Shown here piece after piece: positions 1,109-60,827 of a stretch of 64,000 bases of DNA. Numbering within the stretch: position 1 is the first letter of the stretch; every line of letters begins with the position of its first letter. The stretch lies in NCBI GenBank assembly GCA_043824495.1, contig JBDRSV010000005.1:7955-71954 (forward strand). The letters are read 5' to 3'. Below the pieces are notes generated by a model. It had not been told where the DNA came from and searched no databases. It saw nothing but the letters and a program-made list of their open reading frames with translations. Origin of the DNA: Candidatus Aenigmatarchaeota archaeon. GTDB taxonomy: Archaea; Aenigmatarchaeota; Aenigmatarchaeia; QMZP01. The translations under genes were made by a program, and so were the position numbers.

Positions 1109-1120
1109 CTTTCTGCCTAT

Positions 1121-1146
1121 ATATCCCTTTAAATTGACAATATAAA
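1121..1146 (+). repeat. Cassette 3'-flank motif, copy A: ATATCCCTTTAAATTGACAATATAAA
   Basis: One of four copies in the window, each 23/26 identical to this one. It lies between the last gene of cassette 1 and the mcm start. Confidence 0.85.
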
Positions 1147-6873: not shown

Positions 6874-6936
6874 ATAGAAATTACTTGATTTTCAATAGAA
6901 TTTACTTGATTCTAAATAGAAATTACTTAGAATTAT
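6874..6936. repeat. Three tandem 21-nt repeats (ATAGAAATTACTTGATTTTCA-like)
   Basis: Copies start at 6874, 6895 and 6916 with period 21, and there is a partial copy just upstream. The array lies between cassette 1 and the 3' end of gene 6933..7658. Confidence 0.7.
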
Positions 6937-8073: not shown

Positions 8074-8212
8074 AAACAACAAAATTGGTTAATACAAGAG
8101 ATGATGAAGAACACGCTGCGAAGCTGACTTAGTCTCTGTTTTTCTTATTATTTTTCCTGTATCACATGTAGCTATTTATTGCAGTGTTCATAAGAATTAA
8201 CATAGTGATTTT

Positions 8213-10981: not shown

Positions 10982-11070
10982 AAAACATAATGTTATCGTT
11001 AAATTTATAAATTGACATCACGATTTCAGAGAAGAGCGCTTTTGCTCATAGGTAATTCTTTGTAAATCAA

Positions 11071-13522: not shown

Positions 13523-14353
13523 ATGATATCGTGTAAATCAAAACAGGTGGATTCAACACGGCTTGACGCTAGGCCGAAAAAGCGACGAATGCCAGTTCAG
13601 GTCTCGCGTGCCTGGGATGCGTATTTCAGCTCCGGCGACCCTGGTGTTCGTCAGAACCTTCTCAATCATTACCTGCCGCTCGTATGCAATGTGGCGGGTA
13701 GGATGGCTCTAGGCTTTCCCAAAGCTGTTGAGCTGAATGATTTGATTTCCACAGGCACGATCGGCTTGTGCCAGTCCTTAAAGAACTTCGATCCTAAACG
13801 AGGCGTCAAGTTCGAAACCTTTGCGGTTCCCCGAATCCGTGGTGCAATTCTCGACGAGATGCGCAGCTTGGATTGGGTGCCGCGTTCCACACGCTCGAAA
13901 GCACGTAAGATTGATCGAGTCACAACTCAGATCGAACAACAACAGGGACGTGTGTCAATGCATAATGAACTCGCTGTCCTTCTGAAGATCCCGCTGGACG
14001 ATCTGCTAGTGGTGCTGACAGATATTTCGGCATCAAGGCTTATGTCCTTGGATGAATTGGTATATCGAGAGGAGGACAATAGGCAGGTTCCGAGAGTCGA
14101 GACACTCGAACTTCCTGTGAGAAGAGATGCCTTGAGAGAGGTCGAACGCAGAGAGCTAAAGGTATTCCTCATTAACGCCATTTCTACTCTCAACGAGCAA
14201 GAGACACATGTCATTGGCTTATACTACTACGATGAGCTTACCATTCGTGAGATTGGCGAACTCATGAATCTCTCGGAATCCCGAATCTCGCAGGTTCACA
14301 CTAGGTCTGTGGAAAAGTTGCGAAGAATGGTGCGCGATAGATTCGGATACTGA
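13523..14353 (+). CDS. fliA: bacterial FliA/WhiG-type (sigma-28) RNA polymerase sigma factor
   Basis: Region 2 reads LNHYLPLVCNVAGRM...DLISTGTIGLCQSLKNFDPKRGVKFETFAVPRIRGAILDEMR. Region 4 reads LNEQETHVIGLYYYDELTIREIGELMNLSESRISQVHTRSVEKLR. GGGGGGTGA SD is present. Confidence 0.85.
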   Translation: MISCKSKQVDSTRLDARPKKRRMPVQVSRAWDAYFSSGDPGVRQNLLNHYLPLVCNVAGRMALGFPKAVELNDLISTGTIGLCQSLKNFDPKRGVKFETFAVPRIRGAILDEMRSLDWVPRSTRSKARKIDRVTTQIEQQQGRVSMHNELAVLLKIPLDDLLVVLTDISASRLMSLDELVYREEDNRQVPRVETLELPVRRDALREVERRELKVFLINAISTLNEQETHVIGLYYYDELTIREIGELMNLSESRISQVHTRSVEKLRRMVRDRFGY

Positions 14354-14643: not shown

Positions 14644-14670
14644 GTGTGTCCCATAACACACTTGGTTCTT
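14644..14670 (+). terminator. hairpin GTGTGT-cccata-ACACAC followed by a T-rich tract
   Basis: A 6-bp perfect stem lies immediately after the last cassette-2 ORF and runs into TTGGTTCTTTATATT. Confidence 0.4.
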
Positions 14671-14694
14671 TATATTGTCTAATTAGAGGGATAT
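14669..14694 (-). repeat. Cassette 3'-flank motif, copy B (reverse complement: ATATCCCTCTAATTAGACAATATAAA)
   Basis: 23/26 identical to copy A. It ends 2 nt before the ATG of backbone ORF 14697. Confidence 0.85.
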
Positions 14695-30711: not shown

Positions 30712-32781
30712 ATGAAAATCGCTTTAATTACCCTCGTTTTGACTATGATCTTAGTTTTAGGTTTATCTCAAACAGTTCTAGCACAAGTCAATGTAGGAGA
30801 TTTACCTGCTAAAGGCAATTCTGATGCTCCTATTACAATAGTAGAGTTCTCAGATTTTCAATGTTCATTCTGTGCAAGATTTACATCACAAACTCTTCTA
30901 GAAATACAAACTAAATATATAGACACCGGTAAAGTCAAATTCTATTTCAGAGACTTTCCTTTAAGTTTCCATCAGCAAGCAAAGCCAGCTGCTTTAGCAG
31001 CAAGATGTGCAGATGATCAAGGTAAGTTCTGGGAATTTCATGACTTAATTTTCGAAAATCAACAAGACCTAAGTGAAGCAACATACAAACAATGGGCATC
31101 TGATCTCGAATTAAATACTGTAGAGTTCAATTCATGTTTCGATTCAAATAAATACAGCGCTGAAATTGACGCTGATTTTTCAGCAGGTCAAGCAGTGGGT
31201 GTAAGCGGTACACCATCATTCTTTATTAACGGGCACAAAGTTGTAGGAGCTCAACCATTTGCAGCATTTGAAAATGTAATAGAACAACTTTTAGATGGAA
31301 CTTTAGAACCAGTTGATCCTACTGATATACCAGAACCTACTATTCCAGAAACGCAACCAGTACCACCATTACCTGAAATTGTTGATGTTGATGTTGGAAG
31401 CTTACCAGTAAAAGGTGCTTCAAATGCTCCAGTAACAATTATAGAATTCTCTGATTTCGAATGTCCATTCTGTGGAAGATTCACATCACAAACTCTTTCA
31501 ATGATTGAATCTGAATATGTAGACACAGGAAAGGTAAAATTCTACTACAGAGATTTCCCATTGAGTTTTCATCAACAAGCAATGCCGGCAGCTATTGCTG
31601 CAAGATGTGCAAATGAGCAAGGAGAGTTCTGGGCATTTCATGATTTAAATTACGAAAACCAACAGAATCTTGGTGAATCAGTATACAAACAATGGGCATC
31701 TAATCTTGGTTTAAACATAGCTCAATTCAATTCATGCTTTGATTCAGAAAAATATGAAACAGCTGTTCAAGCAGACTTTGCAGCAGGTCAGGCAGCAGGT
31801 GTAAGTGGAACGCCATCATTCTTTATTGGAAACAGTCAGGACGGATACCAAAAATTGGTTGGAGCTCAATCATTTGCAGCATTCAAAACAGTTATAGATC
31901 AGCAACTTGGTGTAGAACCAGATCCTTATCCTGATACACCGGGAACAGAAGATATGCAACCAGAACCAGTTAAAGGAAATCCAAACGCTCCAGTAACAAT
32001 CGTAGAATTCTCTGATTTCGAATGTCCATTCTGTGCAAGATTCTTTACAAGTACTCATGGACAAATTGTTTCAGAATATGTAGATGCTGGTCATGCAAAA
32101 ATAACATTTAGTAATTTCCCTCTAAGTTTCCATCAGAATGCACAGTCAGCTGCAGAGGCTTCTGAGTGTGCTCATGAACAAGGTAAATTCTGGGAATTCC
32201 ATGATCTTGTATTTGAAAATCAAAATTCTCTAGATGTAACACAATATAAACAGTGGGCATCACAACTAGGGTTGAATACAGCAAGATTTAATTCTTGTGT
32301 AGATACACACAAATATGCACCTGAAGTGAGACATGATTTTGCTCAAGGACAAGCAAAAGGAGTTCGTGGAACACCATCATTCTTCATCAATGGTGAGAAC
32401 CTTGTAGGTGCTCAACCATTCTCAGCATTCAAAGCTGTGATAGATAAATACTTGGATACAGATGAACCAGAAACACAGCCAGATGATATAGACACAGAGA
32501 TCTTAGACATTGTATTCAAGCTTGAGAGCTTGGGAATCAAAGTAGATAAGTTAGCAACACTATCAGGATCACTAGCTTCATATTACTCAAACACAGGTGA
32601 TTTCGCAAGAGCAACTCACTGGCAAGAAGTCGCAAACATGTTCGATAATGTAATGGATTTCATGGATGAGATAAAGAGCGAATTAAACAGAACAAGAGAT
32701 CTATTTGATGCAAGAAACAGCATCTCTGAATTAACAAGCTTCATAGGAAGTATAATTAACAAGATATTAGGATTTGTATGA
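30712..32781 (+). CDS. secreted protein with three tandem DsbA-like thioredoxin domains
   Basis: A signal peptide is present. Three ~200-aa repeats each carry FSDF(Q/E)C(S/P)FC(A/G)RF, FPLSFHQ(Q/N)A, GKFWEFHD and GTPSFFING. Confidence 0.8.
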   Translation: MKIALITLVLTMILVLGLSQTVLAQVNVGDLPAKGNSDAPITIVEFSDFQCSFCARFTSQTLLEIQTKYIDTGKVKFYFRDFPLSFHQQAKPAALAARCADDQGKFWEFHDLIFENQQDLSEATYKQWASDLELNTVEFNSCFDSNKYSAEIDADFSAGQAVGVSGTPSFFINGHKVVGAQPFAAFENVIEQLLDGTLEPVDPTDIPEPTIPETQPVPPLPEIVDVDVGSLPVKGASNAPVTIIEFSDFECPFCGRFTSQTLSMIESEYVDTGKVKFYYRDFPLSFHQQAMPAAIAARCANEQGEFWAFHDLNYENQQNLGESVYKQWASNLGLNIAQFNSCFDSEKYETAVQADFAAGQAAGVSGTPSFFIGNSQDGYQKLVGAQSFAAFKTVIDQQLGVEPDPYPDTPGTEDMQPEPVKGNPNAPVTIVEFSDFECPFCARFFTSTHGQIVSEYVDAGHAKITFSNFPLSFHQNAQSAAEASECAHEQGKFWEFHDLVFENQNSLDVTQYKQWASQLGLNTARFNSCVDTHKYAPEVRHDFAQGQAKGVRGTPSFFINGENLVGAQPFSAFKAVIDKYLDTDEPETQPDDIDTEILDIVFKLESLGIKVDKLATLSGSLASYYSNTGDFARATHWQEVANMFDNVMDFMDEIKSELNRTRDLFDARNSISELTSFIGSIINKILGFV

Positions 32782-41460: not shown

Positions 41461-41486
41461 TTTATATTGTCTACTTAAAGGGATAA
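41461..41486 (-). repeat. Cassette 3'-flank motif, copy C (reverse complement: TTATCCCTTTAAGTAGACAATATAAA)
   Basis: 23/26 identical to copy A. It lies 49 nt upstream of tRNA-Ser. Confidence 0.85.
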
Positions 41487-41535
41487 AATAGAATGAAAAA
41501 TAACTTAAATACGGCAGTGTATATTCTTCTTATAT

Positions 41536-41617
41536 GCCGGGATGGCAGAATGGTTAATGCGCACGACTGGAAATCGTGTGCCCTTTGGGCTTGGGGGTTC
41601 GAATCCCTCTCCCGGCG
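41536..41617 (+). tRNA. tRNA-Ser (anticodon GGA), class II with long variable arm
   Basis: Hand fold: acceptor GCCGGGA/TCCCGGC, anticodon arm CACGA-CTGGAAA-TCGTG, variable arm GCCC-ttt-GGGC, T arm GGGGG-TTCGAAT-CCCTC. Confidence 0.85.
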
Positions 41618-41759
41618 TTTCTTTATTTAATAAGGTCACAGAAATAAACAAAAGATCTAAATAATGTATTTTAATGTGCCCTTACAGAAAATGTATGCAT
41701 GGGCACCAAATTAAACAAAAATAGATAATTTTATATATTATTGTGCCCATATATAAAAT

Positions 41760-42698
41760 ATGGTTTATTTAGAGAAGATTCAGAGAAGAGACAAAACTTA
41801 TTACTACGTCACAAAAAACTTTAGGATCAACGATAAGAAATGGAAAAAAATAAGAAAATATGTAGGTAACACTCCTCCTTCAAAAGAAGACACAAAAAAA
41901 GCAATAAAGGAGATTGAGAGAGAAGCAATAGAAAGAAACCTGAAGAAGTCCTCTTCTAAGTATAATTACCTGAGCAATGAAGAAGCGGAAAAGTTGCAGG
42001 ACTTGAAAGAGATTTTTAACAAATGGTACGGAAAGCTGACTGGTATTGCGAAAAAAAAATATGAAGAGGATTTTGTTGTAAGATTCACATATAATTCGAA
42101 TGCTATTGAAGGCAATCGTTTAAGTCTTCGTGAAACAAGTATGATTTTAACAGAAAATATAATACCTTCGGGTGCTATACCTAATGATTACAATGAAACT
42201 ATCAACTCAAAAGACTGCTATGAATTCATGAAAGAGTATAAAGGAGAATTCAATCAGAAATTTCTACTCAAGATCCAGGAGCTTCTCACAAAGAATACTA
42301 ATTGTAGGATTACAGGAAGATACAGGGATCATGAAGTTAGGATTTCTGGTTCTGAATGGATTCCTCCTCCACATAAAAAAGTCAAAGAGGAAATGAGAAA
42401 GGTTTTTCAATGGTACTATTCTGCTAGTAAGAAGTTACATCCTGTGGAGCTCGGAGCAATTCTGCATAATAAATTAATAAGAATTCATCCATTCTCTGAC
42501 GGAAACGGGAGAACATCAAGGGTTGTAATGAATTGGATATTAATGAGGAGTGATTTCCCTATGGTTTACATAGAATTAAAAGATAAGGCGGCGTATTATG
42601 ATGCTATTGAACAGGGAGACAAAGGAAAAGATGATGCAATAGTACATTACATTACCTCTACTCTTATGAAACAGCACACGTTTAAACCGGAAAATTAG
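41760..42698 (+). CDS. Fic/DOC-family protein (AMPylase-type)
   Basis: The canonical Fic motif HPFSDGNGRTSR is present. Confidence 0.85.
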   Translation: MVYLEKIQRRDKTYYYVTKNFRINDKKWKKIRKYVGNTPPSKEDTKKAIKEIEREAIERNLKKSSSKYNYLSNEEAEKLQDLKEIFNKWYGKLTGIAKKKYEEDFVVRFTYNSNAIEGNRLSLRETSMILTENIIPSGAIPNDYNETINSKDCYEFMKEYKGEFNQKFLLKIQELLTKNTNCRITGRYRDHEVRISGSEWIPPPHKKVKEEMRKVFQWYYSASKKLHPVELGAILHNKLIRIHPFSDGNGRTSRVVMNWILMRSDFPMVYIELKDKAAYYDAIEQGDKGKDDAIVHYITSTLMKQHTFKPEN

Positions 42699-42809: not shown

Positions 42810-44174
42810 CTAAACTCTCCGATACAGGTTAATAGTAAATGAATCTCCAAAATGAAGTTTTGAATTGAAAGTCTTGTTAAGGTAGTATTTTCCTGGAAGT
42901 ATATCCTCTATGTCTCTTGAGAGATCAGGAGTAAAGAACCCATCTAAAACAATGATATCAAAGAATCTATTATCAACCGCTTCTTTAAAATCATTAAATG
43001 TCGATAGAGTGTCCCCATCATAATCTAAGTAGAATGTTGCATGAGTTTGCTTATTTGGTTCTCTCATAAAATAATATATATATGAATTTGATTCTCCAAG
43101 AATAATATTAGCATCGGGCATGCTTCTTATATAATCCACTGGTTCAGATATATTTGGATACGAACGGTCTAAATAATACACAAAAAATCCAGATGATATT
43201 ACAAAGGCAATCAAAACAATACCCCCAATTTTTACTCGTAGTCTTACAATTCCAGCAGCCATGAGAGGAGAGAGAAAAATAAATGGATATGCCATGTGCT
43301 TAAACATTGTATACTCAAAATTGAAAGTGAATACATGAAAAATAAACATTAAGAGAGATCCGAATAACAAATATTTCCATTCCTTGATCCTATTCTTTGC
43401 CAATAATGCCAAAGAGAAGGGAATGACAAAGTAGAAAAGAATACTAATAAATCTCGTAATATCGATTTGAGCTAATGAATTTAGATGCTTATCAGAGAAA
43501 AATGATAATAATGATATCAAAGAAGAAAAGAACAATATAGCATAAATAGAAAGAAATAATAAAAATACAATCAAGAAGTATAGGCCCTTCTTTTTATTTT
43601 TAGAATAAATGAATGGGAATAAGACTACTGTATATATTATTGCAATATATTTTGATATTACTGAGAAGAAAAATGATATCGGTGATAGATAAAATCCTTT
43701 ATTTTTTGATCCAGCAATTGCAAAGTAAAAACCAGCAGATAGGAAAAAGATGGAGAATATTTCAAACGATACCATTCTACTGACAAATATGAATGGCGCA
43801 TTTAAAACAAATATGGAAAGAGATACAAGAGCTAGCTTTCTATCTAATAGTTCTCTAGATGTAAGATAGACAAAAAATGAAGTCCCAGTAGCTAAAATTA
43901 CACTGAGCAAGCGTGCTGCAAAAAGTCCTCCGATTAAATCCATTATTCCATAAATTAATGGGAAAAGAGTACTACCAAATATATATCTTGGAGGATCGCC
44001 ACCAAAATCATAAATATCCCGTAACTCATTCCCTATGATAAGATACTGTGACTCATCAGTGAAAATAGTATTGAAATTCAGATTAGCAGCCTCGAAAAGG
44101 AAGAACAGAACAAGTATGATAACAAGGATGTATTTGGCATCAGTTCTTTGTATCCATTCAGGCACCGAATTCAT
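42810..44174 (-). CDS. polytopic GT-C-like (PMT_2/ArnT-like) membrane glycosyltransferase (tentative)
   Basis: About 11 TM helices precede a soluble C-terminal domain. An acidic DE motif (FTDESQY) lies in the first loop. Confidence 0.5.
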   Translation of the reverse strand: MNSVPEWIQRTDAKYILVIILVLFFLFEAANLNFNTIFTDESQYLIIGNELRDIYDFGGDPPRYIFGSTLFPLIYGIMDLIGGLFAARLLSVILATGTSFFVYLTSRELLDRKLALVSLSIFVLNAPFIFVSRMVSFEIFSIFFLSAGFYFAIAGSKNKGFYLSPISFFFSVISKYIAIIYTVVLFPFIYSKNKKKGLYFLIVFLLFLSIYAILFFSSLISLLSFFSDKHLNSLAQIDITRFISILFYFVIPFSLALLAKNRIKEWKYLLFGSLLMFIFHVFTFNFEYTMFKHMAYPFIFLSPLMAAGIVRLRVKIGGIVLIAFVISSGFFVYYLDRSYPNISEPVDYIRSMPDANIILGESNSYIYYFMREPNKQTHATFYLDYDGDTLSTFNDFKEAVDNRFFDIIVLDGFFTPDLSRDIEDILPGKYYLNKTFNSKLHFGDSFTINLYRRV

Positions 44175-44202: not shown

Positions 44203-44249
44203 ATCTAATGTTCCATTTGGGCTTGGGGGTTCAAATCCCTCCTCCGGCG
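44203..44249 (+). repeat. Duplicate of the 3' part of tRNA-Ser (att-like direct repeat / tRNA remnant)
   Basis: CCATTTGGGCTTGGGGGTTCAAATCCCTCCTCCGGCG matches 41581..41617 at 33/37, and weaker similarity extends about 10 nt further upstream. No 5' half is present. Confidence 0.65.
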
Positions 44250-44302
44250 TCTTTTCTATATCAGACCTAGTTATATAAAATTTACTATGTTTAATCTTTT
44301 AC

Positions 44303-50493: not shown

Positions 50494-51960
50494 TCATTTC
50501 AAAGCCGGTCCCTGTAATCCAGGCACAAAATCACAATTACATCCTTCCCAGCACATGTATTTCTTGTTGAACACCTTACAGAAGTTGTTTACAGATACAT
50601 GTATAGGTTCTTCGTCCCAAAAGACTCCATCTGTTACGTTTACTGTGAAATCATATTCTCCGCTGGAGGATGGTCCAGTTTTCCATTGGAAATATGAGCC
50701 TGACCAGGTAAATACTGGGTTATCTATGTGGTATGTTAAATCATCTCCGTTTCTATCCAATGCTTCTGGATAAATTCTTACTAATCCCATTTCATTAACT
50801 GTTATATTTTGGAATGGTTCTAGGACAGGTGCTACCGCTTCACTGACGTTAATTTGATAGCTTTGTTCATCGAATAAGAAGCCATCGGAGACTCTTAGTG
50901 TTACTGTATAATTCCCTGATTGATTATAATTAGGCGACCATGTTACCAATCCATTTAGACTGTCTATTATCATTTCTGGTGGGTATTGGATTAAGAAATA
51001 ATTCAATATGAAACTTCCAGGATAATAAACTTCAACATCATATGAATAAAATTCACCTCCCACTACTTCTGTTATGGGGGTTGATGTTATTTCTGGTACA
51101 AAGCTTCCGCCAAGTGGTTTGTGATCTATTCCATCAAAAGGACCCGGAACGATGTAAGTGTATGGGTATCCAGGGTTTGTTTCAAAATCTCCCCAATAGT
51201 TTCCCATCACCGAGTTATTCCAATAGTTGTTTTCAGCTTGAACTTCTTCAAAAGCGTTTATCGAATTATTGTACATAGAATTATTCCAGAATATGTTATT
51301 ATGCGCTTTATGAACTCTTAGTCCGTATATATTATTCTCGTATAGTACGTTTTCAAATAATTGTGCATAATCTGTTTCACCGACAAGAATTCCGTAGTTG
51401 TTATTGTGCGCAATGTTTTTTGATAACACACTTCTGTGTGCAAAATTCTGATTTGCAATCCCCTGGTTATTCAAAAAAATATGATTTCTAGATATTATGG
51501 TGTTTTGACTGCCAATGATTAATAATCCGGCATCAAAGTTATCATGGACTGTATTATTTTCTAGAGTGTTATTGTTGGCCGCCGAATATATTTTTATTCC
51601 GTGAAGAAAATCGGTAACTTCGCAATTTTTGATAATTACATTGTCATATCCTTCATTTGAAATGCCTTCATAGAGCATGCTATTAATACCATCTAGTAAA
51701 TGGCCATTGCAATCTAGTGTTACATTGTTGGCAGCTATTCTAATTGGTATTCCACTACAGCTTGTGATGTCATACCACATTGTGTGATTAGAAGATAAAT
51801 AATCACCACATTGACATGCAACGAGATCACCGCATATACCTTCAGGGCTGTTTATTTCATTGACTTCCAAATTCTCAGCTGATAGTTTCTGTCCATAAAC
51901 AAAACTAACACTGATAGAAGCAACAATTACACATACTAGTAGTACGAGAGCAACCCTCAT
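50494..51960 (-). CDS. secreted right-handed beta-helix (NosD-like) protein with two Ig-like domains
   Basis: A signal peptide is present. Repeated N-rich ~22-aa beta-helix turns (NNTLENNTVHDN, ISRNHIFLNNQG...) are followed by two Ig-like repeats (GNYTVTLRVSDG, GEYDFTVNVTDG). Confidence 0.65.
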   Translation of the reverse strand: MRVALVLLVCVIVASISVSFVYGQKLSAENLEVNEINSPEGICGDLVACQCGDYLSSNHTMWYDITSCSGIPIRIAANNVTLDCNGHLLDGINSMLYEGISNEGYDNVIIKNCEVTDFLHGIKIYSAANNNTLENNTVHDNFDAGLLIIGSQNTIISRNHIFLNNQGIANQNFAHRSVLSKNIAHNNNYGILVGETDYAQLFENVLYENNIYGLRVHKAHNNIFWNNSMYNNSINAFEEVQAENNYWNNSVMGNYWGDFETNPGYPYTYIVPGPFDGIDHKPLGGSFVPEITSTPITEVVGGEFYSYDVEVYYPGSFILNYFLIQYPPEMIIDSLNGLVTWSPNYNQSGNYTVTLRVSDGFLFDEQSYQINVSEAVAPVLEPFQNITVNEMGLVRIYPEALDRNGDDLTYHIDNPVFTWSGSYFQWKTGPSSSGEYDFTVNVTDGVFWDEEPIHVSVNNFCKVFNKKYMCWEGCNCDFVPGLQGPALK

Positions 51961-52018
51961 AATTAGAATAGATAGAAAGATTTAAAATACTTTTTAATCC
52001 TCCCTCTAAGATTTTGTT

Positions 52019-52156: not shown

Positions 52157-52599
52157 AACTACCAACTAGAAGAAAAGAAGATACTAGTAAGAAAAGACTA
52201 TTCAAATTACCAACCTTTATTATGGTCCTTTATCCTGGTTGGCAACTATATAGAGATATTACGGATCCGATATCATTTTTTAATAATAAAAAAGGAATAA
52301 TCCAGGTTTTAACATTCACAAGAGATAAAGAAATAGAATTGGGTGCCACAAAACCAGAAGAAGTTTTGAAAAAATATATAGAGAAAGAGACAAAGTCTGA
52401 AGTGAAAATGAAACGCTTTGAAAAGAATGATTCTACTTACGTTTTATCTGACTATTACAAAACAAAGGATAAAACTATGAGAGCAATGTTCATTGAGAAT
52501 AAGAAGAAAGCCGCATTTGTCACATTTGCTCATGAAACAATCCCCAAAGATGATGAAGACATAGAAAAAATGCTCATATCCTTTGAGTTAGGGAATTGA
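52153..52599 (+). CDS. hypothetical protein
   Basis: 148-aa ORF. Confidence 0.5.
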   Translation: MKLPTRRKEDTSKKRLFKLPTFIMVLYPGWQLYRDITDPISFFNNKKGIIQVLTFTRDKEIELGATKPEEVLKKYIEKETKSEVKMKRFEKNDSTYVLSDYYKTKDKTMRAMFIENKKKAAFVTFAHETIPKDDEDIEKMLISFELGN

Positions 52600-52912
52600 T
52601 AGAAAGATTTAAAAAGACTTTTATGGTCTTGTACGAAGGTCTTGTACGAAGATTTAGTAATGAAGAGTTGGGTTCTCTCCCAACGTGTTAATTTCTACTA
52701 AAATAAACAATTATTAGACCTAGAACACCTATGAATATTCCTATTACTGTTTGGATTGTTGGATCGAAAATTGACCAGTCCACAATAATATTGTCTGCGA
52801 CTCCTAGAAATAGTAATGAAACAAATATCAGTATTAGTCCAAATAATAACATACCTGAGGGTTTCATGAAGATCTTTTAGCAGATGGTATTAAAACGTTT
52901 AAGTTGAAGTAT

Positions 52913-54577: not shown

Positions 54578-54687
54578 TACTATCTTTAATATGTAGTGTT
54601 GTATTTTTGATAATCATTTATGTGAGAAAATGTGTGTACTGTTGTTATATTGGATATACTTTTAACTCCTTTTACTAAGTCTTCTAT

Positions 54688-54951
54688 ATGCATTGTGATA
54701 AATGTAAGAAAACAGTAACTCAGGCAGTATTTAATTATTCTGTAGCGAAATATGAAAAAACTCTATGTATGAGTTGTCAAAGAGTGTATACAACTGTAAC
54801 ACGTAAGGTCGTTGGGGATAAGAGTAAAGAAGTTGGAGAAGATCTACATTGCGATAAATGTAAGAAAAATGTGAGTCAAGCAGTGTATGATTATTCTAAA
54901 AAGAGACATGAAAGAGCTCTATGCATGAACTGTCAAAAAAGGGTTAAGTAA
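54688..54951 (+). CDS. tandem double zinc-ribbon protein
   Basis: The two halves are HCDKCKKTVTQAVFNYSVAKYEKTLCMSCQR and HCDKCKKNVSQAVYDYSKKRHERALCMNCQKR. Confidence 0.5.
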   Translation: MHCDKCKKTVTQAVFNYSVAKYEKTLCMSCQRVYTTVTRKVVGDKSKEVGEDLHCDKCKKNVSQAVYDYSKKRHERALCMNCQKRVK

Positions 54952-54984
54952 AAATAGAAAGAATTGAAAGTCTTTTTAGTGTTA

Positions 54985-57081
54985 CTATCTCCTACAAGTT
55001 GGGGCTGGATCGCCTGCGAATAAGTGATCAATCATTATAGCCAAATCCAATGCAGTTGGAAAACCATCCCCATCTAAGTCAGCAAGCCATGGAGGATCAG
55101 GCAGAGGTTCTCCTGCGAACAGTATGTCAATAAGTTTTGCAAGATCTAACGCTGTGAGGAAGCCGTCATAGTCTAAGTCTCCGCATACAATATTGTTGAC
55201 AGTTATAGTAACTTCCTGTTCATCATAAAGTTCAGTAGTGTCTGTAACTCTGAATGTAACATTATATACTCCAGAATCATTAAATGTTGGAGTCCAGTTG
55301 AATAATCCAGTTTGTGGATCAAATGAGTATGGGCTTGGTAGGCCTTCATCTATTTCGAAGGATAAATCATCTTCATTAGCATCTGTAGCATTTAATTGAA
55401 TAACTACTGAATATGTTTCATAAACTTCTTGATTGGCAATAGTATCAAGAACGGGTGGTGTTGGACCAATTATTGCAGTTATCAATTGTGAGTCATTGTT
55501 GTTTGAATTATTCATTTCTATTTTTACTAGATCCTCATCAACTCTAGCTTCTATTAGATGATCACCTATACCAGAAACTATGTGAAGTAGTACAAACTGT
55601 TTAAGGTTGTATTTGTTGATATTTTGGAAATCTTCAACAAGAAGTTCATCATTATCATATATTTTGGTTGAGATGTTTTTCATATTAACTCCTCCAATAT
55701 TGTTAATAGTAACAGTGATTGTAATTTCTTCGCCATCAATTGGATTTTCATTGGAAATGTTAATTGTTGGAATTAGATCACCAAACCAGTCAAAGTCGCT
55801 GTATGGCATAGTAGGAGTTTGATTACTGTTTGATATATTTCTTGCACCAAAACCATGACCATCTACTCCACCACCAGAGTAATAATTCCACATTGGATCA
55901 GTTTGTGTCAAATAGTCTGTGTGTCCCATTGCTCTACCAAAAATATTAATCACAAAAGCGTCAGTGTAATAGATGTATGGTGGACCCAAGCTGAATGTTC
56001 TATCAAGTGTATCTTTGTTGTCATTTAATATTTTGTAGAATCGTTCTCTATCCATACCTTCTTCATATTCCAGTTTAGATAATAAATGACCTGTAATGTC
56101 GTATCCGTGAGATCTCTGAAGCTCTCTGTCATATATAGTAGTATCATGATAATCATTTGCAACATAAGCTGCCCATTGATACCCTGAGAATCCGTTTTCT
56201 AAATATGTATCAGCTGTTTCTTGGTTAATTGCACCGGATATAGCATTAACATTATACATGTGATGTTCAGCAAAGCCTTCTGTCAACCATGATCTAGTGT
56301 ATATTGGATATGGGTTAATAGAGTGAGACGCTTCATGGAGTGCCGTATTCATGTATGGCCACCAATCACCTAATTCACCAGTGTTGTTGTAATATGTGGT
56401 CCCATTCACGTAATATGGCTTATTACAACCAGTCTTATACATTGGATCAGAGAAAACAACATTAGAGTGTGTAGGAGAAGCATTTCCACCGTAACAGGCT
56501 GCAGGATGTCCGTAATTATATATCTCTAAAGGAACTCCAAACCATCCTTTTGAACTCCAACCAGTTATATTCTTTAGAATTTCATACCTTGGTACGAAAT
56601 TATCCCAGAAAGCGTCTAATGTTGCCTGGTTGTTCGAATAGAAAACACTTTCGATGTAAATGTCAAGTGAAACATTTCCTTGATCATCAAAATATGGTTT
56701 ATGCACAAAGGTTGATTCTGGAGAATTTATTTCAACGGGTGTTTTTATAATATTTTTAAGGGGCTTTTCTTTTGTTTTTTCTAAAGGCTGTCCTTCTGGA
56801 TATTGAAGCTCATCAACAACAATTGGGGTTTCTACACCATCAAGATTAACAATACCCTTTGCAAAATCAATTTCAAGAATAGAACCCTCTCCTGTTACAA
56901 CAGTCTTGACGTTTGAGCTATCTCCATTAAGCATCAAAAAGCTGTCAGTTAAATCAATTGGTTCTACACTTCTTATTTGAGCAGCTGCTTGACCAAAGAA
57001 AAATAATGTTACTCCTGTCATTATAGAAAATATGATTAAACTCATTAAATATTTCTGAATCTTGTCATTCATGATTAACAT
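54985..57081 (-). CDS. secreted HExxH protein with Ig/cadherin-like domain and C-terminal dockerin repeats
   Basis: A signal peptide is present, along with ALHEASHSINP and an Ig-like block (GVYNVTFRVTDT). The C-terminus carries GDLDYDGFLTALDLAKLIDILF and ADLDGDGFPTALDLAIMIDHLF. Confidence 0.65.
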   Translation of the reverse strand: MLIMNDKIQKYLMSLIIFSIMTGVTLFFFGQAAAQIRSVEPIDLTDSFLMLNGDSSNVKTVVTGEGSILEIDFAKGIVNLDGVETPIVVDELQYPEGQPLEKTKEKPLKNIIKTPVEINSPESTFVHKPYFDDQGNVSLDIYIESVFYSNNQATLDAFWDNFVPRYEILKNITGWSSKGWFGVPLEIYNYGHPAACYGGNASPTHSNVVFSDPMYKTGCNKPYYVNGTTYYNNTGELGDWWPYMNTALHEASHSINPYPIYTRSWLTEGFAEHHMYNVNAISGAINQETADTYLENGFSGYQWAAYVANDYHDTTIYDRELQRSHGYDITGHLLSKLEYEEGMDRERFYKILNDNKDTLDRTFSLGPPYIYYTDAFVINIFGRAMGHTDYLTQTDPMWNYYSGGGVDGHGFGARNISNSNQTPTMPYSDFDWFGDLIPTINISNENPIDGEEITITVTINNIGGVNMKNISTKIYDNDELLVEDFQNINKYNLKQFVLLHIVSGIGDHLIEARVDEDLVKIEMNNSNNNDSQLITAIIGPTPPVLDTIANQEVYETYSVVIQLNATDANEDDLSFEIDEGLPSPYSFDPQTGLFNWTPTFNDSGVYNVTFRVTDTTELYDEQEVTITVNNIVCGDLDYDGFLTALDLAKLIDILFAGEPLPDPPWLADLDGDGFPTALDLAIMIDHLFAGDPAPTCRR

Positions 57082-57088
57082 TAACAGA

Positions 57089-57110
57089 AAGATTTATATT
57101 GGTTTTAAGA
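57089..57110 (+). repeat. Left direct repeat bracketing cassette 4: AAGATTTATATTGGTTTTAAGA
   Basis: Eighteen consecutive nt are identical to 60761..60778. After a 1-nt indel, AAGA matches again. Confidence 0.75.
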
Positions 57111-57153
57111 CGCGTTTCTATTCATTGTTTTCTTATTAGAAAATCTTGAACAT

Positions 57154-57179
57154 ATATCCCTTTTATTTGACAATACAAA
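57154..57179 (+). repeat. Cassette 3'-flank motif, copy D: ATATCCCTTTTATTTGACAATACAAA
   Basis: 23/26 identical to copy A. It lies 72 nt from the start of backbone gene 54985..57081. Confidence 0.85.
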
Positions 57180-57213
57180 GGGGATGGTCCATCACTGTAG
57201 ACCATTAATCCCC
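57180..57213 (-). terminator. stem-loop immediately after the FadB-like stop codon
   Basis: GGGG-ATGGTC-catcactgta-GACCAT-taat-CCCC. On the transcribed strand it is followed by TTTGTATT, the start of the 3' motif. Confidence 0.45.
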
Positions 57214-57218
57214 ATAAG

Positions 57219-59303
57219 TCAGACTTTCATGACTTTGTCGCATTCACGTCCGACGCGTCCACCTCGGCATACTTCGGATATCATGAAATGAGCAGAATGA
57301 TCTGCTTGGCGAGATATGGAATCGTTCAAATTACATCCACACGCTTCTTGTATACAGTTCATGATAGCCTTTCTTGCAAATTCCGTGCTAGCATTGTCAG
57401 TGTCTGGCAGGTTAGTGATACTCAGTGGCACATCTGTCAGGCGGTCAGTCTTCAGATTTCTTTCCGTGAGACCATGATCACCGCCCGTAGCAACCTTCCA
57501 TGCCATTTCAAGCGCACGTGTCATCGGAGCAGCGTGGTCGATCAGCCATCCCACAGCCTCGGATGCATCAATAGAATGTCCACTCAAGAGCATGTAGATG
57601 ATTTTAGGCCAATCAGTTCTACGTGCCTTGCGAAATGGCCAGTGGCATCCTTCCATGCCAGGGACAACCGGAAGCGTCACCTCTGGCATGCCGAGCTTTG
57701 CATCATTAACTGAAATCAGAAAGTGACAATGCATGAGAAGCTCAAGCATACCACCTAGACAGCGCTTGCCATTGACAAACCCAACGGATACCTTGAACTT
57801 ATCATTGAGCCTTCTGGCTGTACGAGACCACTGCATGGATATTCTGTGTCCAGTATGTACATTCTCAAGCGCAGGATAGAACTCGCTTGTGTCCGCGCCG
57901 ACTAGCTGAGTGGAGAGATGGAAGTCGCCGGAGACAATCACGCGTTCGATTCCTTCGGCTTTCAGCCAATCAATGGCTCGGTTGAGTTCAGCGTCGACAT
58001 CGCTGTTGTAACTCTCGCGACTTATGGCGATGACACCAACTGTTCCATCATGTTCTGCGTTGACGTACAACTGCTGCCATTCTGGTGTGTCCATATGACC
58101 AAAGACACTCGGACACCAGCAGACGCTCGCTGCTTCTGGATGTGACAGGTGATAAGATTCCACGGTCCTGATCACATTATCCGGACCAAGTCCACGAATG
58201 ACAGCGAGTATACCGTGATTGAACTGAGCACAGAGTTCACCGATGGCGTTGATGTGGGAGAGATGGCCGCGATTTTCATGAAGCATGAGACTGGTCATTT
58301 GGAACAGAGGACCGAGAATCCATGTTTTGAACTCGTCAACTCCGGCTGTATCCAAACTCCAGTTCACAAGAGGACGGAAGTGATCTGGTGGATACCAGTC
58401 TTGTCTACTTTCCTTATGTTCCATCAACTCAGGAGTTGGCGCGAACAATTCAGCACCATAATGCTCATGTAAGTGGTGGAGACATGACCAGGTAAGGAAG
58501 TTCGCACCAGCCGCACCGATCGCGTCATGCGCTCGGAACGGGTTCGGACCAAGCAACTTGCGGATAAATTTGTCGATCTTCCAGTAGGGCATGTTGCTGG
58601 CCTGGTGATAACGCAATCCGGCGAGCGTCAGGCCGCAGAACAAGACATCGAGAACAAACGACCATTTGTCAGCAACAGGAATCGGGATCATACCCAAAGC
58701 CCAGAAGAGCTTATCGGTAGATGTGTCATCTCCCACAGTCTCCCACACTTTGCTGACCTCATGTGGGAATGCCGGATGTGCGATGCCAACTCCCAGTTCT
58801 GAACTTGGGAATCCCGAGGTTACGGATCTGATGTGGATACCCGGGAATGCTGCTCTGAAGAGACCGTAGTGATCCTTCTTGACACTGAGAATCTCTGGAA
58901 TTGCTTCCAACAGAAATTTCGGATTGAATTGGCCGAGTTCACCTGGAAGAGTAGTTCCGTCATAACTCATACGGATAATACTCCTCATGATCTCATCAGC
59001 CTTTGACCTACCAAAGGCGCGTACCAATCCTGGGTACTGTCTCCCAATGCCATCAGGTGCACTGGGGAAATCTAGTCCGATGATACGAACACCGTGTGGT
59101 TGAAGCCGGGAACCGAGTTGCATTGTCTTGCCAGCACCAACAATTCCATTGGCGCCGGAGATGACAAGTGATCCTCGATTACTTGCTTTACCAAACACAT
59201 TCGAAACTGCATCGGATGCAGTGACAGGTAATCCATTCTTGAAGATCCCGAGAACAGTTCCGAGACCCAATGTTTGGATTGTTGAAGTTCTCATCATTTT
59301 CAT
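57219..59303 (-). CDS. fusion protein: N-terminal 3-hydroxyacyl-CoA dehydrogenase-like, C-terminal enoyl-CoA hydratase/crotonase-like
   Basis: It has the Rossmann motif ISGANGIVGAGKT and the C-terminal crotonase pattern CLGGMLELLMHCHFLISVNDAKLGMPEVTLPVVPGMEG. Confidence 0.75.
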   Translation of the reverse strand: MKMMRTSTIQTLGLGTVLGIFKNGLPVTASDAVSNVFGKASNRGSLVISGANGIVGAGKTMQLGSRLQPHGVRIIGLDFPSAPDGIGRQYPGLVRAFGRSKADEIMRSIIRMSYDGTTLPGELGQFNPKFLLEAIPEILSVKKDHYGLFRAAFPGIHIRSVTSGFPSSELGVGIAHPAFPHEVSKVWETVGDDTSTDKLFWALGMIPIPVADKWSFVLDVLFCGLTLAGLRYHQASNMPYWKIDKFIRKLLGPNPFRAHDAIGAAGANFLTWSCLHHLHEHYGAELFAPTPELMEHKESRQDWYPPDHFRPLVNWSLDTAGVDEFKTWILGPLFQMTSLMLHENRGHLSHINAIGELCAQFNHGILAVIRGLGPDNVIRTVESYHLSHPEAASVCWCPSVFGHMDTPEWQQLYVNAEHDGTVGVIAISRESYNSDVDAELNRAIDWLKAEGIERVIVSGDFHLSTQLVGADTSEFYPALENVHTGHRISMQWSRTARRLNDKFKVSVGFVNGKRCLGGMLELLMHCHFLISVNDAKLGMPEVTLPVVPGMEGCHWPFRKARRTDWPKIIYMLLSGHSIDASEAVGWLIDHAAPMTRALEMAWKVATGGDHGLTERNLKTDRLTDVPLSITNLPDTDNASTEFARKAIMNCIQEACGCNLNDSISRQADHSAHFMISEVCRGGRVGRECDKVMKV

Positions 59304-60505
59304 TTGCCACTGCTCCCTTCATCAACCTTGAAGATCGCCGCTATACCAACATCACCGGCAGCACAACCGAAGATGAGAACATATCCGCCACCGAGCGAGA
59401 CCGCCTCTACAAAGGATTCAATCAGAACTCTCGTAAGAGTCGGTCCTTGCGGATGACCCCATACAAGCGGGCAGCCGGTTTTGTTCATGTTGTGCCAGTC
59501 GTAGTCCATGACCTTCGCGAAGATGGCGTCGTTGACTGCGAACGGATTGTGGTTTTTCACCACGATCATATCAGCCATTGTCAGTCCGGTGCGGCGCAGA
59601 AGTTTTTGTACCGCCAACGCAGGTGCTTCGGGCATGAGACTCGGATGCGCGCGTACTTCGGTTTTTGCGATAAAGGTAATATCGATCTCTGGTTGCGAAC
59701 TGAAGTCTGAAACTCTCTCCTTGTTCACAACCAGTAGGCACGCCATGCCGTCAGATGCATGTGTCTGTGTGCCGGTGGTCACGCAGGTATCGAGTTCGAA
59801 AAGGCGGTTCAATCCATCCATCGTCAGCTTGCGGACGCCGAAATCGTCGTCGATTGTTCCCATGGGCTTGCCCTGGAGATTGAGGATTTCGAGCGGGACA
59901 AGCACCTTGTCGAGAAAGCCAGATTCTTTGGCTTGAAAATACTGCTCATGCCGATGGAAGGCGATCTCGTCCACTTCTTTACGGTTGATCTTGTGCTTCC
60001 TTGCGGCCTCTCCTCCGCAAGCAATCATTGCTTTTCCGGTTGCCGGATCGAAACCAAAGTTGTCCCATACATCGGCGAGTGCTTCTGTCCGACGATAACT
60101 GCGACGCTCTGGGAAGACACCAGCCGGAGAGTCACTTGTCCGGTCGAATGTCAGAACGCCGACGACATCGTGCGAACCACTGTTCACCTCTGCACCCGCA
60201 AGGAGCACTGCCTGTAGACCTGTAGCACATGCCTGTTCAACGTGGAATCCTGGGATTCGAATTCCCATACAACTGGCCACCAACGGGGCATTCCAGAATT
60301 TCCAGTGCCACGGGATAGTTGATCCGATGACAAGGTACTCGAGCAGACTCTTGGGCACTTTCCTTAACCCAAGAATCCTGTTCATTGCTTCCCCGGCGAA
60401 CTGGCCTGGATTGACCTCCGCCAGGGGTGAAGTTTGCCAGGCAGGGAAATAACTACTCCCCCAAGTCCCGTATGGGATCCTGGCATTTGGGTACATCGGT
60501 TGCAT
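59300..60505 (-). CDS. thiolase-family acyl-CoA acetyltransferase
   Basis: The active-site Cys context is HVEQACATGLQAV and the C-terminus carries GCAAGDVG. The SD is GGAAGGAGAGGG. Confidence 0.75.
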   Translation of the reverse strand: MQPMYPNARIPYGTWGSSYFPAWQTSPLAEVNPGQFAGEAMNRILGLRKVPKSLLEYLVIGSTIPWHWKFWNAPLVASCMGIRIPGFHVEQACATGLQAVLLAGAEVNSGSHDVVGVLTFDRTSDSPAGVFPERRSYRRTEALADVWDNFGFDPATGKAMIACGGEAARKHKINRKEVDEIAFHRHEQYFQAKESGFLDKVLVPLEILNLQGKPMGTIDDDFGVRKLTMDGLNRLFELDTCVTTGTQTHASDGMACLLVVNKERVSDFSSQPEIDITFIAKTEVRAHPSLMPEAPALAVQKLLRRTGLTMADMIVVKNHNPFAVNDAIFAKVMDYDWHNMNKTGCPLVWGHPQGPTLTRVLIESFVEAVSLGGGYVLIFGCAAGDVGIAAIFKVDEGSSGK

Positions 60506-60566
60506 AAACCCTCTCCTTCCGTAGAAAAAGACCTAAACAAAACTAACATCAATTTGTCTGTCGTTT

Positions 60567-60675
60567 ACGTATGATGTCGATTCCTAAGATGCAGTACCAA
60601 TTCCAGTATCGAACAGATGTCGACAATAGTCAGCGTCAGCTGATTGGCAATTATATTGTTTTGGGAAGCATGAAT
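60567..60675 (-). repeat. Cassette 5'-leader module, degenerate copy 4
   Basis: On the minus strand, ATTCATGCTTCCC...GCCAAT resembles ATATCATGCTCCACA...GCCAAT. CTTAGGAATCGACATCATACG matches CCTAGGAACCAACACCACACAG of copy 1 at about 15/21. Confidence 0.45.
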
Positions 60676-60760
60676 GCGAAGATATTACTTTCTATATAAC
60701 TAAAATTTATAAAACCAAAAAACTCGCTATAACAATTTATAATTGATAGAAAATTTTAAG

Positions 60761-60783
60761 AAGATTTATATTGGTTTTTAAGA
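60761..60783 (+). repeat. Right direct repeat bracketing cassette 4: AAGATTTATATTGGTTTTTAAGA
   Basis: See 57089..57110. Confidence 0.75.
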
Positions 60784-60827
60784 TATGAAGAGTAGCCTAT
60801 TTATTCTTTCATAAACAAATAAATTGC

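Follow-up and report, generated by a model that had tools for sequence, protein, structure and literature searches.

When a stretch of foreign DNA in a genome stands between two nearly identical copies of a short sequence, the question is whether the copies are a trace of how that DNA arrived. Such a case occurs in an Aenigmatarchaeota (DPANN) archaeon, where a segment of 3.65 kb, here called cassette 4 (C4), lies between the two copies. The initial annotation proposed that the repeat is a target-site duplication or an att core. We examined C4 within the 64-kb stretch of DNA in which it lies (the window), and in comparison with other loci that carry its motifs. The features of the locus are listed in Table 1.

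Table 1. Features of the C4 locus, with positions in the window.
Feature	Position	Strand	Sequence or basis
Gene for 698-aa CARDB/He_PIG/dockerin surface protein (left flank, host)	54985..57081	-	probable true start 57072
Left repeat copy	57089..57110	.	AAGATTTATATTGGTTTTAAGA
AT-rich 44-nt spacer, 3' motif to left copy	57111..57154	-	sequence
Cassette 3' motif	57155..57178	-	TTGTATTGTCAAATAAAAGGGATA; TTRTATTGTC.A.T.A.AGGGATA family, 2 mismatches to strict pattern
Terminator-like hairpin	57180..57213	-	GGGGATTAATGGTCTACAGTGATGGACCATCCCC; -15.5 kcal/mol, then T; immediately 5' of 3' motif
Cargo gene 2, bacterial-type 694-aa protein with C-terminal enoyl-CoA hydratase domain	57219..59303	-	homology
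Cargo gene 1, thiolase (acetyl-CoA C-acyltransferase family)	59300..60505	-	Shine-Dalgarno upstream
Degenerate 5' motif	60662..60674	-	TTCATGCTTCCCA; family core TCATGCTMCACA
AT-rich inner 5' flank, 77 nt	60684..60760	-	two cassette-proximal TATA boxes and a host promoter-family unit
Right repeat copy	60761..60783	.	AAGATTTATATTGGTTTTTAAGA; one additional T relative to left copy
Own promoter of the 96-aa gene	60798..60827	+	TATTTATT, 30 nt ahead of ATG 60828

A bacterial operon between conserved end motifs

The compositional island that had been described at this position was confirmed by both GC content and GC3. The GC content is 0.45-0.51 at 57-61 kb and about 0.35 around it (50% for the island and 35% for the host), while GC3 is 0.49-0.58 in the cargo genes and 0.22-0.31 in host genes. 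The two cargo genes overlap by 4 nt. The 694-aa protein has 1745 homologs, whose best non-self matches are 72-73% identical and whose named members are all bacterial, and the cargo proteins are 65-73% identical to proteins of Gemmatimonadota, Planctomycetota, Marinimicrobia and Zixibacteria. The nearest cargo homologs are found on contigs of 60% GC, in the same two-gene operon (thiolase and a 696-aa protein); the cassette motifs were not found in these bacterial-type operons. By its composition, its homologs and its operon structure, the island is a horizontally acquired bacterial operon.

The 3' motif of C4 is the best PWM match in the window (44 bits), and the order in which a hairpin is followed by this motif is general across the cassette family. 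The 5' motif is degenerate, with 2 mismatches to the 12-nt core, and a TATA box, TTATATAG (60692-60699), begins 28 nt ahead of its ATG. We define the class to which such cassettes belong by a TATA box, the 5' core 17-45 nt later, cargo, a hairpin with a T run, and the 24-nt 3' motif. The 3' end of C4 has the last two of these elements in this order.

The window contains four cassettes, dispersed and each in a separate intergenic region. Each of these four GC-rich islands has the 3' motif at its 3' edge, and no other copy of the motif is present in the window. Together, the foreign cassettes account for about 20% of the 64 kb, and they are placed just upstream of host promoters. The 3' motif was also found in 37 metagenome contigs, and all 14 of its genome matches fall in MAGs of Aenigmatarchaeota or in ones with the label uncultured archaeon; the 5' motif is paired with it in 8 units. 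Across the class, the cargo includes entire operons of bacterial origin as well as a flagellar sigma factor. Judged by its sequence, the C4 island belongs to a lineage-specific class of cassettes with conserved end motifs that has not been described previously.

We also searched for signs of mobility. No inverted copy of the 3' motif was found in the window at up to 3 mismatches, and no inverted repeats were found to bracket the C4 island. A Pfam/NCBIfam scan of window ORFs of at least 80 aa found no integrase, transposase, RT, Cas1 or IntI. A circular or tandem form would predict a contiguous junction of 3' motif, TATA box and 5' motif. Such junctions are not enriched (6 observed, 6.9 expected), and just one of them, in locus L036, is convincing.

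The flanking repeat and the promoters around it

As the initial annotation stated, an 18-mer, AAGATTTATATTGGTTTT, is present exactly at 57089-57106 and 60761-60778, and AAGA matches again past a 1-nt indel, which lies within a T run. Overall, the copies match at 22/23 nt. Between the left copy and the 3' motif are 44 nt, and 86 nt separate the right copy from the degenerate 5' motif, upstream of which it lies on the minus strand. These distances are close to the 43 and 85 nt given earlier, and the coordinates also support the view that the repeats enclose the entire foreign cassette, both motifs included. The edges of the repeat are sharp, in that similarity is absent directly outside the 22/23 identity, while paralogous promoters of the local family are only about 70-80% alike and have fuzzy edges. 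A sharp-edged identical core stands at both C4 junctions, as expected of attL and attR.

A search that allowed up to 3 mismatches gave no further match to the 18-mer in the window, where it is the longest dispersed exact direct repeat if intragenic duplications are excluded. Among the collected loci, it occurs in a single Logan contig only. The possibility that it is a common intergenic word is therefore not borne out, either in the window or in the collected loci. Local alignment of one C4 flank with the other gave a score of 19, compared with maxima of 15-17 in shuffled sequences (z = 9.1). Among the 703 pairs formed by 38 host intergenic segments, the C4 flanks share the top score of 19 with one pair, which reflects the 3' motif common to cassettes C1 and C4 that was included in the segments compared; the next pair scores 16. 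These values uphold the earlier judgment that the repeat is hardly due to chance.

On the minus strand, the left copy reads TCTTAAAACCAATATAAATCTT and forms the BRE/TATA core from which the 698-aa gene's promoter (P_698) is built. The TATA box, ATATAAAT, is located 19 nt before an ATG at 57072. P_698 is homologous to the NosD promoter from TATA to ATG over 28 nt (P<0.001), the extent of this homology being 28-42 nt. Because promoter and leader are both homologous to those of the NosD gene, 57072 is a more likely start of the 698-aa gene than 57081; the flanking genes are otherwise as annotated. On the other side of the cassette, the 96-aa gene has its own promoter to the right of the right copy, and homology with L002, the nearest relative, begins there (about 60802).

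A complete unit of the host promoter family adjoins the right copy on its inner side (minus strand CTTAAAATTTTCTATCAATTATAA; the plus-strand word is GATAGAAAATTTTAAGA, at 60745-60761). Over the 24 nt next to this copy, the inner flank resembles the NosD promoter (P = 0.007), and the right copy together with the next 17 nt is identical at 31/38 positions to a host intergenic unit at 52598. Words of the promoter family occur in successive intergenic regions, at 51971, 52598, 54953 and 60745. No similarity was found between the inner 5' flank and the 698 leader (P = 0.81), and the spacer next to the 3' motif has no significant similarity to the inner 5' flank or the 698-aa promoter (P = 0.10-0.36). 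Deletion of one copy and the interior, which had been predicted to restore a simple divergent intergenic region, would indeed yield a divergent promoter region of 73 nt in which each gene would retain a TATA box at leaderless distance. This length falls within the 36-224 nt of the window's other divergent spacers.

Relatives of the locus are distant. The closest relatives of the C4 flank proteins are no nearer than 46% identity, and the exact flank proteins are carried by one contig only. In L002, the Cys-ORF, tRNA-Ser and the 96-aa gene are contiguous, so that cassette C3 is absent. Nothing like C4 was found before the 96-aa gene in L002, and the counterparts of the left and right flanks of C4 are not adjacent there.

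A second, independent cassette, in locus L047, is bracketed by an exact 15-nt TATA word that differs from the word at C4. One copy follows the 3' motif at a distance of 8 nt, and the other precedes the 5' motif by 17 nt. The L047 island, which is GC-rich and 1.5 kb in length, is carried by five independent assemblies, and the locus itself is rearranged relative to its relatives. With lengths of 22-23 and 15 nt, these are the flank repeats found in 2 of the 10 cassettes with both ends defined, and in 2 of the 38 motif loci; such a repeat is absent from the other 8 and 36, respectively.

Possible origins of the repeat

The explanation that we favor is that the repeat is a junction duplication, which would have resulted from insertion of the C4 segment at a TATA-box promoter region. 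We put the probability of this tentative reading at roughly 40%. The region in question would be the one that separates the 698-aa gene from the divergent 96-aa gene. The incoming DNA would have brought a host-type promoter unit, and recombination of this unit with the chromosomal promoter would have fallen within a short TATA/BRE core identical in the two, as an att-like crossover of the Campbell type. The enzyme would have acted in trans; candidates are a dedicated recombinase and the homologous-recombination machinery of the host, for which the promoter family would have been the substrate. Such a crossover would place one core copy on each side of the cassette. The proximal copy would go on driving the 698-aa gene, while the distal copy would lie upstream of the cassette, whose own TATA box is positioned for possible initiation at the 5' motif. 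The host-type promoter unit right inside the right copy is expected if the crossover lay in a core common to two units, and we favor an att-like crossover in a short core over a cut by a transposase. An insertion is supported by the exceptional score and sharp edges of the repeat, the foreign interior with its class motifs, the lack of C3 and of anything like C4 in L002, the L047 parallel, and the other long flank duplications of the genome (see below). Since the 18-mer is reused at no other cassette, it is not a fixed att core.

Several observations weigh against a junction duplication. The flank repeat is missing from most complete cassettes and motif loci, window ORFs include no recombinase, and an identity of 22 nt is short for homologous recombination. 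Moreover, the L047 parallel comes from a rearranged locus, and the predicted junction of a circular form is not enriched. The original proposal of a target-site duplication or att core holds only in part: the repeat is non-random, unique and encloses the cassette, but most cassettes have no such repeat and the window has no recombinase.

Because the repeated word is the BRE/TATA core of a local promoter family, promoter duplication or conversion is a live alternative. According to this explanation, there is no insertion scar; members of the promoter family were made identical over 22 nt by tandem duplication or short-patch gene conversion, and the island merely sits in a promoter-rich intergenic region, hence the flanking copies. 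The homology of P_698 to the NosD promoter, the similarity of the right copy to the unit at 52598, the family words in consecutive intergenic regions and the many cassettes without a flank repeat are all in its favor. However, conversion or tandem duplication should leave flanking homology, whereas the identity at C4 ends abruptly on both sides. In addition, the top-scoring intergenic pair is precisely the one that flanks the island, and the independent cassette of L047, in another genome, has a like pattern with a different word. On balance we find this explanation rather unlikely. We are more doubtful of a true target-site duplication, in which a trans-acting transposase or integrase would cut around a TATA box, possibly one bound by TBP/TFB, with a stagger of about 15-22 bp, and the cassette would be a non-autonomous element; casposases and Cas1 provide a precedent for long duplications. 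Sharp-edged direct repeats of target-like promoter DNA at two independent cassettes are consistent with such cuts, as is the proximity of the L047 copies to the conserved end motifs, and these asymmetric motifs could be transposase binding sites. However, the duplications are unequal in length, the C4 copies lie at a distance from the motifs, the right one having host-type promoter DNA on its inner side, and terminal inverted repeats were not found. The window also encodes no transposase, Cas1 or integrase, and most cassettes have no duplication.

It is also important to consider that AT-rich promoter-like words might coincide by chance, as the AT content is high and TATA-type words have little freedom to vary; at least 2 loose matches to the 18-mer were seen in 3 of 100 shuffles. 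However, the alignment score lies above the shuffle maxima, the pair is the best among real intergenic pairs and flanks one of only four islands, and L047 provides a second case, so chance is very improbable. Even harder to credit is an assembly chimera that joined bacterial and archaeal DNA. A chimera would fit the bacterial type of the cargo and the origin of the window in a metagenome assembly, but each of the four islands returns to host DNA, and the flanks of C3 are syntenic with L002. Independent studies have yielded many MAGs in which lineage-specific motifs occur at the junctions, L001, which is a separate Logan assembly, has identical junctions, and the L047 island recurs in five independent assemblies.

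Known systems and the acquisition of foreign genes

C4 resembles elements and islands flanked by att sites of tyrosine recombinases in that a foreign block lies between sharp-edged direct repeats of host sequence (about 15-50 nt), one copy of which preserves a host function, namely a tRNA 3' end in those elements and a promoter in C4. It differs in that the window scan found no integrase in or near the island, and in that sister cassettes use other core words or lack one. In addition, a BRE/TATA promoter takes the place of the tRNA as target, and gaps separate the copies from the conserved ends of the cassette. A classical att-like example is present in the window, where the 3' end of tRNA-Ser is duplicated at 44209-44255 around a Fic/PMT island. 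This tRNA-Ser end and 17 nt around a 372-aa ORF are further long flank duplications in the genome.

Transposons and casposons likewise leave the inserted segment flanked by a direct duplication of target DNA. Casposon duplications are 14-15 bp and those of CRISPR spacer integration are repeat-length, so archaeal integrases can make long ones. However, the cassettes lack terminal inverted repeats, a fixed duplication length, and a transposase or Cas1, and most members of the family have no duplication. Promoter-targeting TnGBS/ISLre2 insertions and IS elements with outward promoters share with C4 a position just upstream of a host promoter, co-orientation and the retention of downstream signals. 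TnGBS/ISLre2-type elements belong to the DDE elements of bacteria, with a transposase gene of their own and short duplications; in C4, by contrast, the duplicated target is the archaeal BRE/TATA itself.

attC sites have been reported in Aenigmatarchaeota among other archaeal phyla (PMC9668308). Like integron cassettes, the cassettes studied here are modular, have cross-domain cargo and carry an element resembling a recombination site after their ORFs. Unlike them, they are dispersed singly at promoters and not arrayed, and each has its own TATA box and leader. The 3' element of C4 is a sequence-conserved 24-mer that follows an ordinary 34-nt terminator stem, which also sets it apart from attC, an imperfect palindrome that is conserved in structure. 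No attC R''/R' cores (GTTRRRY) were found at the C4 hairpin and 3' motif, and IntI was not found in the window. With no such core, no arrays and no IntI in the window, we rejected an identity as integron gene cassettes.

A broader and doubtful possibility, suggested by the motifs and repeats, is that Aenigmatarchaeota have a system of cassette capture and insertion. Motif-bounded units would enter TATA-box promoters and duplicate 15-22 bp of BRE/TATA, with the motifs acting as split attP-like arms. In such a system, the cargo would be arbitrary, the free form would consist of 3' motif, TATA box and 5' motif, and a recombinase encoded elsewhere in the genome would recognize both motifs. The cassette and the displaced host gene would each retain a promoter.

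The genomes of DPANN archaea are tiny, and horizontal transfer is thought to be the main way in which these archaea gain functions. To our knowledge, it is not known how foreign genes, and especially bacterial ones, are installed and expressed in these organisms. The C4 repeat and its L047 parallel are the sole physical trace of a possible insertion chemistry. If only promoter-family duplication has occurred, the repeat is ordinary, and the cassette motifs are still worth study. If the junction duplication of BRE/TATA is true, integration would be targeted to promoters, such that incoming genes would obtain an archaeal promoter and the neighboring gene would not be silenced. This would constitute a concrete and testable route for the acquisition of genes across domains.

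The repeat and its promoter context

Cassette 4 (C4), one of four GC-rich islands of foreign appearance in the window (C1 to C4), lies between two copies of a short direct repeat. The initial annotation had reported an exact 18-nt match on both sides of this cassette and considered it hard to ascribe to chance, and both statements were borne out. The 18-mer has only these two matches in the window, even if three mismatches are allowed, and no other fetched locus contains it, repeat retrievals of the same contig excepted; the doubt that it might be a common word is thus answered for these sequences. Intragenic duplications aside, no other dispersed exact direct repeat in the window is as long. 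Local alignment of the two C4 flanks gives a score of 19, while the maxima from shuffled sequences are 15-17. We also scored alignments between 38 intergenic segments taken from the host DNA, covering all 703 possible pairs. The C4 flank pair shares the top score with one other pair, which reflects a cassette motif common to C1 and C4, and the third-ranked pair scores 16. A chance origin of the repeat is unlikely, as is assembly chimerism. As had been proposed, removal of one copy together with the interior would leave a simple divergent promoter region, of 73 nt, with one TATA per gene.

Read on the minus strand, the left copy is TCTTAAAACCAATATAAATCTT, followed by TCTGTTAATGTTAATC and then by an ATG at 57072. 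The region from TATA to ATG is homologous to the promoter of a NosD-like gene at 51960-51990 (P<0.001), and because of this homology the left copy is predicted to be the BRE/TATA core of a leaderless-type promoter belonging to the 698-aa gene, the left host neighbor of C4. After the right copy comes CTTAAAATTTTCTATCAATTATAA, which belongs to the same host promoter family (P = 0.007); together they match the family unit at 52598 at 31/38 positions. The 96-aa gene, which is the right host neighbor, has its own TATA to the right of the repeat, conserved with the nearest relative (L002). We observed a local family of host intergenic units containing GATAGAAAGATTTAAAA. On the minus strand, these units correspond to a TATA plus CTTTCTATC, located ~19 nt before the leaderless ATG of the NosD gene. 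Some members of the family are at convergent gene ends, with no gene start after them. We considered whether the inner spacers of C4 are decayed host-promoter copies from a nested duplication, and rejected this idea, as the similarity is not significant.

Positions of the repeat, the cassette motifs and other features in the window
Feature	Position	Strand	Remark
Repeat, left copy	57089-57110		AAGATTTATATTGGTTTT-AAGA
Repeat, right copy	60761-60783		AAGATTTATATTGGTTTTTAAGA
3' motif, one copy per island	1119-1146	-	
3' motif, one copy per island	14670-14693	+	
3' motif, one copy per island	41462-41485	+	
3' motif, one copy per island	57155-57178	-	
C4 5' motif, degenerate	60662-60674		TTCATGCTTCCCA
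694-aa protein with enoyl-CoA-hydratase domain	57219-59303	-	overlaps thiolase gene
Thiolase gene	59300-60505	-	overlaps 694-aa gene
TATA of 96-aa gene	60798-60805		
GATAGAAAGATTTAAAA family	51971-51987, 52598-52614, 54953-54969, 60745-60761	+	
C1	1600-5978		
21-nt tandem repeat	6874-6928		ATAGAAATTACTTGATTCTAA, 2.6 copies
Flagellar sigma factor (C2)	13523-14353	+	
17-nt direct repeat	9848-9864, 11041-11057		TTTGCTCATAGGTAATT
372-aa ORF	9863-10981	-	
tRNA-Ser(GGA)	41535-41618		
Partial tRNA-Ser copy	44209-44255		47 nt of 3' end, 85% identical
Fic-domain gene	41760-42698		
PMT_2-like membrane protein	42810-44174		
Conserved ~45-nt stretch	8095-8140		L055 1640-1690
689-aa protein	30712-32781		
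87-aa ORF	54688-54951		
Duplication in 87-aa ORF	54686-54781, 54842-54937		96 nt, 77% identical

Cargo and cassette class

The C4 interior has ~50% GC, compared with 35% in the surrounding background, and GC3 is 0.49-0.58 in the cargo versus 0.22-0.31 in ten host genes. There are more than 1700 homologs of the 694-aa protein. The best non-self matches are 72-73% identical, and the named matches are all bacterial (Gemmatimonadota, Planctomycetota, Marinimicrobia, Zixibacteria and Aminicenantes). The three closest homologs are in contigs of 60% GC, in the same operon of a thiolase and a 696-aa protein, which there has its own intrinsic terminator and lacks the cassette motifs. The C4 cargo is accordingly a bacterial operon. 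The host backbone is archaeal, with GatD/GatE, an archaeal ThrRS editing domain and NFACT, and has ~70% nucleotide identity over conserved genes with L055, a contig from a Candidatus Aenigmatarchaeota MAG.

Each of the four islands is closed 3' of its genes by the motif TTRTATTGTC.A.T.A.AGGGATA. A PWM built from other loci only finds exactly four copies in the window (38-44 bits), with everything else at 12 bits or less. Elsewhere, the motif was found in 37 metagenome contigs and 14 stretches of species-representative genomes; the latter all belong to Aenigmatarchaeota MAGs or MAGs labelled uncultured archaeon. Viral contigs in IMG/VR yielded no strict match and two loose ones that look like chance, and we therefore rejected a viral or plasmid vehicle for the cassettes. 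The motif almost always comes after a hairpin and T run that are not conserved, or after the 3' end of a tRNA; the mean MFE upstream is -10.3 kcal/mol, compared with -6.4 in controls (p ~1e-6). In AT-rich hosts, the motif is located exactly at the transition from GC-rich to AT-rich DNA. That it is simply the promoter of the next gene was rejected as a general explanation, since in three fetched loci (L053, L012 and L055) the motif faces genes or RNAs that are convergent with it. At the other end, eight units, C1 and C3 among them, have TCATGCTMCACA 17-45 nt after a TATA box. In C4 this 5' motif is degenerate, and the TATA starts 28 nt before its ATG. Our literature search did not turn up these motifs or cassettes.

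A minimal unit, on the minus strand of a fetched locus (L029, 2132-2352), has ~200 nt between the 5' and 3' motifs and encodes at most a 54-aa leaderless ORF that begins with MLH at the motif's ATG. Several further units begin with short MLH(T/N/K) mini-ORFs that vary in length and frame. Pairing of the 5' and 3' motifs at the RNA level, or a BHB-like helix, was rejected: the 220-nt L029 unit folds no better than shuffled sequences (z = -1.6), and its ends do not pair in the fold. Rfam yielded tRNAs and no other family. In another locus (L008), ~1.2 kb between two 3'-motif copies (1263-2459) contains no ORF of more than 52 aa, looks highly structured, has tRNA-like T-arm words and is possibly a non-coding RNA that lacks annotation. 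The third copy of this locus, at 2803, is reversed and lies 11 nt upstream of a Zn-ribbon ORF of 96 aa. As to other cargo in the window, C2 encodes a bacterial FliA/WhiG-type (sigma-28) flagellar sigma factor (268 bits), here in an archaeal genome without the cognate RNA polymerase, and C1 encodes three FHA-domain proteins and has a weak FliH-like match. Just outside the C1 5' end is a tandem repeat, beside an NTP-transferase stop codon.

Relatives and other duplications

In comparison with L002, where a Cys-rich ORF, tRNA-Ser and the 96-aa gene are contiguous, C3 is accordingly an insertion; L002 also lacks the 19 kb found between tRNA-Ser and the 96-aa gene in the window. Conversely, L055 has a motif-terminated gene at a site where the window holds only ~75 nt. 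For C4, an exact-protein look-up of a 365-aa flank gene and the thiolase returned no record, a scan of genome contigs with the 365-aa protein found no relative, and a search among 5.8 billion proteins found relatives of only 46% and 40%. For the 96-aa and 698-aa proteins, exact look-ups found only the same Logan contig. Given the lack of close relatives in these flank-protein searches, no filled/empty pair was found for C4.

Some further duplications and features are worth recording. The GluRS stop codon falls within the exact 17-nt direct repeat, whose two copies flank a 372-aa ORF; at the syntenic position L055 has an unrelated 401-aa gene and no repeat. We rejected a recombinase function for the 372-aa ORF, which has no family or PDB match and, by eye, a kinase-like HPGN...DLD motif. 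The Fic-domain and PMT_2-like genes lie between tRNA-Ser and the partial copy of its 3' end, which is 2.6 kb downstream of it. This is a classical attL/attR-like signature, yet no integrase is present. Downstream of an 85-aa gene, the stretch AGAGATGATGA...CTGA...CTTAGTCTCTG, conserved with L055, contains words resembling C and D boxes and is a possible small C/D-box sRNA; Rfam had no match to it at the gathering threshold. The 689-aa protein has three tandem DsbA/thioredoxin-like domains, whose ~600-nt DNA repeats are 67-82% identical, and each copy of the duplication within the 87-aa ORF encodes a Cys-rich, Zn-ribbon-like segment.

Origin of the repeat

Most copies of the cassette have no flank repeat, and we therefore rejected such repeats as a family property. 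Only two of the ten units with both ends defined have a significant one, namely C4 and L047, and in a generic flank test of 38 non-redundant motif loci these two alone stand out (z = 9.1 and 5.2, respectively). L047, from an AT-rich Black Sea Aenigmatarchaeota MAG, is a close parallel to C4. Its island (1.5 kb, 45-52% GC) has a single MFS-type gene and a hairpin and ends in the 3' motif. The repeat is an exact 15-nt TATA word, TTTATAAATAAAACA, at 1612-1626 and 3141-3155, with one copy 8 nt beyond the 3' motif and the other 17 nt ahead of a degenerate 5' motif. Divergent EF-1beta and Zn-ribbon genes border the island; in relatives these genes are adjacent and co-directional. An empty site was not found for L047: relatives at 70% identity differ in gene order, and the island is present in all four sufficiently long contigs with an identical EF-1beta, a fifth such contig being too short.

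We favor the interpretation that the C4 repeat is an insertion-junction duplication: incoming DNA would have recombined with the chromosomal promoter within a short BRE/TATA core present in both, in an att-like crossover of the Campbell type. Three observations argue for it: the edges of the duplication are sharp (22/23 identical within, with similarity gone directly outside), a complete host-type promoter unit is directly inside the right copy, and the repeat length differs between C4 and L047. The next rival is a staggered-cut duplication by a trans-acting enzyme; the 64-kb window encodes no integrase, transposase, Cas1 or reverse transcriptase, and the cassettes have no terminal inverted repeats. 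It is also possible that the repeat reflects duplication or conversion within the promoter family, unrelated to insertion, because the copies are not flush with the conserved cassette ends and the C4 empty site was not found. However, true paralogs of this family are 70-80% alike and have fuzzy edges, in contrast to the C4 repeat. A circular or tandem form predicts a contiguous junction of 3' motif, TATA and 5' motif, which is not enriched where units abut; this prediction failed.

In its arrangement, C4 works like an att-flanked genomic island. It is nonetheless distinct from integrase-borne elements, because there is no integrase in the window and the core is not reused; from transposons with target-site duplications, because there are no terminal inverted repeats, constant length or transposase in the window; and from integron cassettes, because there is no attC, array or IntI. 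C4 is best classified as a bacterial operon that was acquired horizontally and belongs to a new, lineage-specific class of cassettes, and its repeat as a putative insertion scar, of a generally known type with an unusual target, an archaeal TATA promoter.
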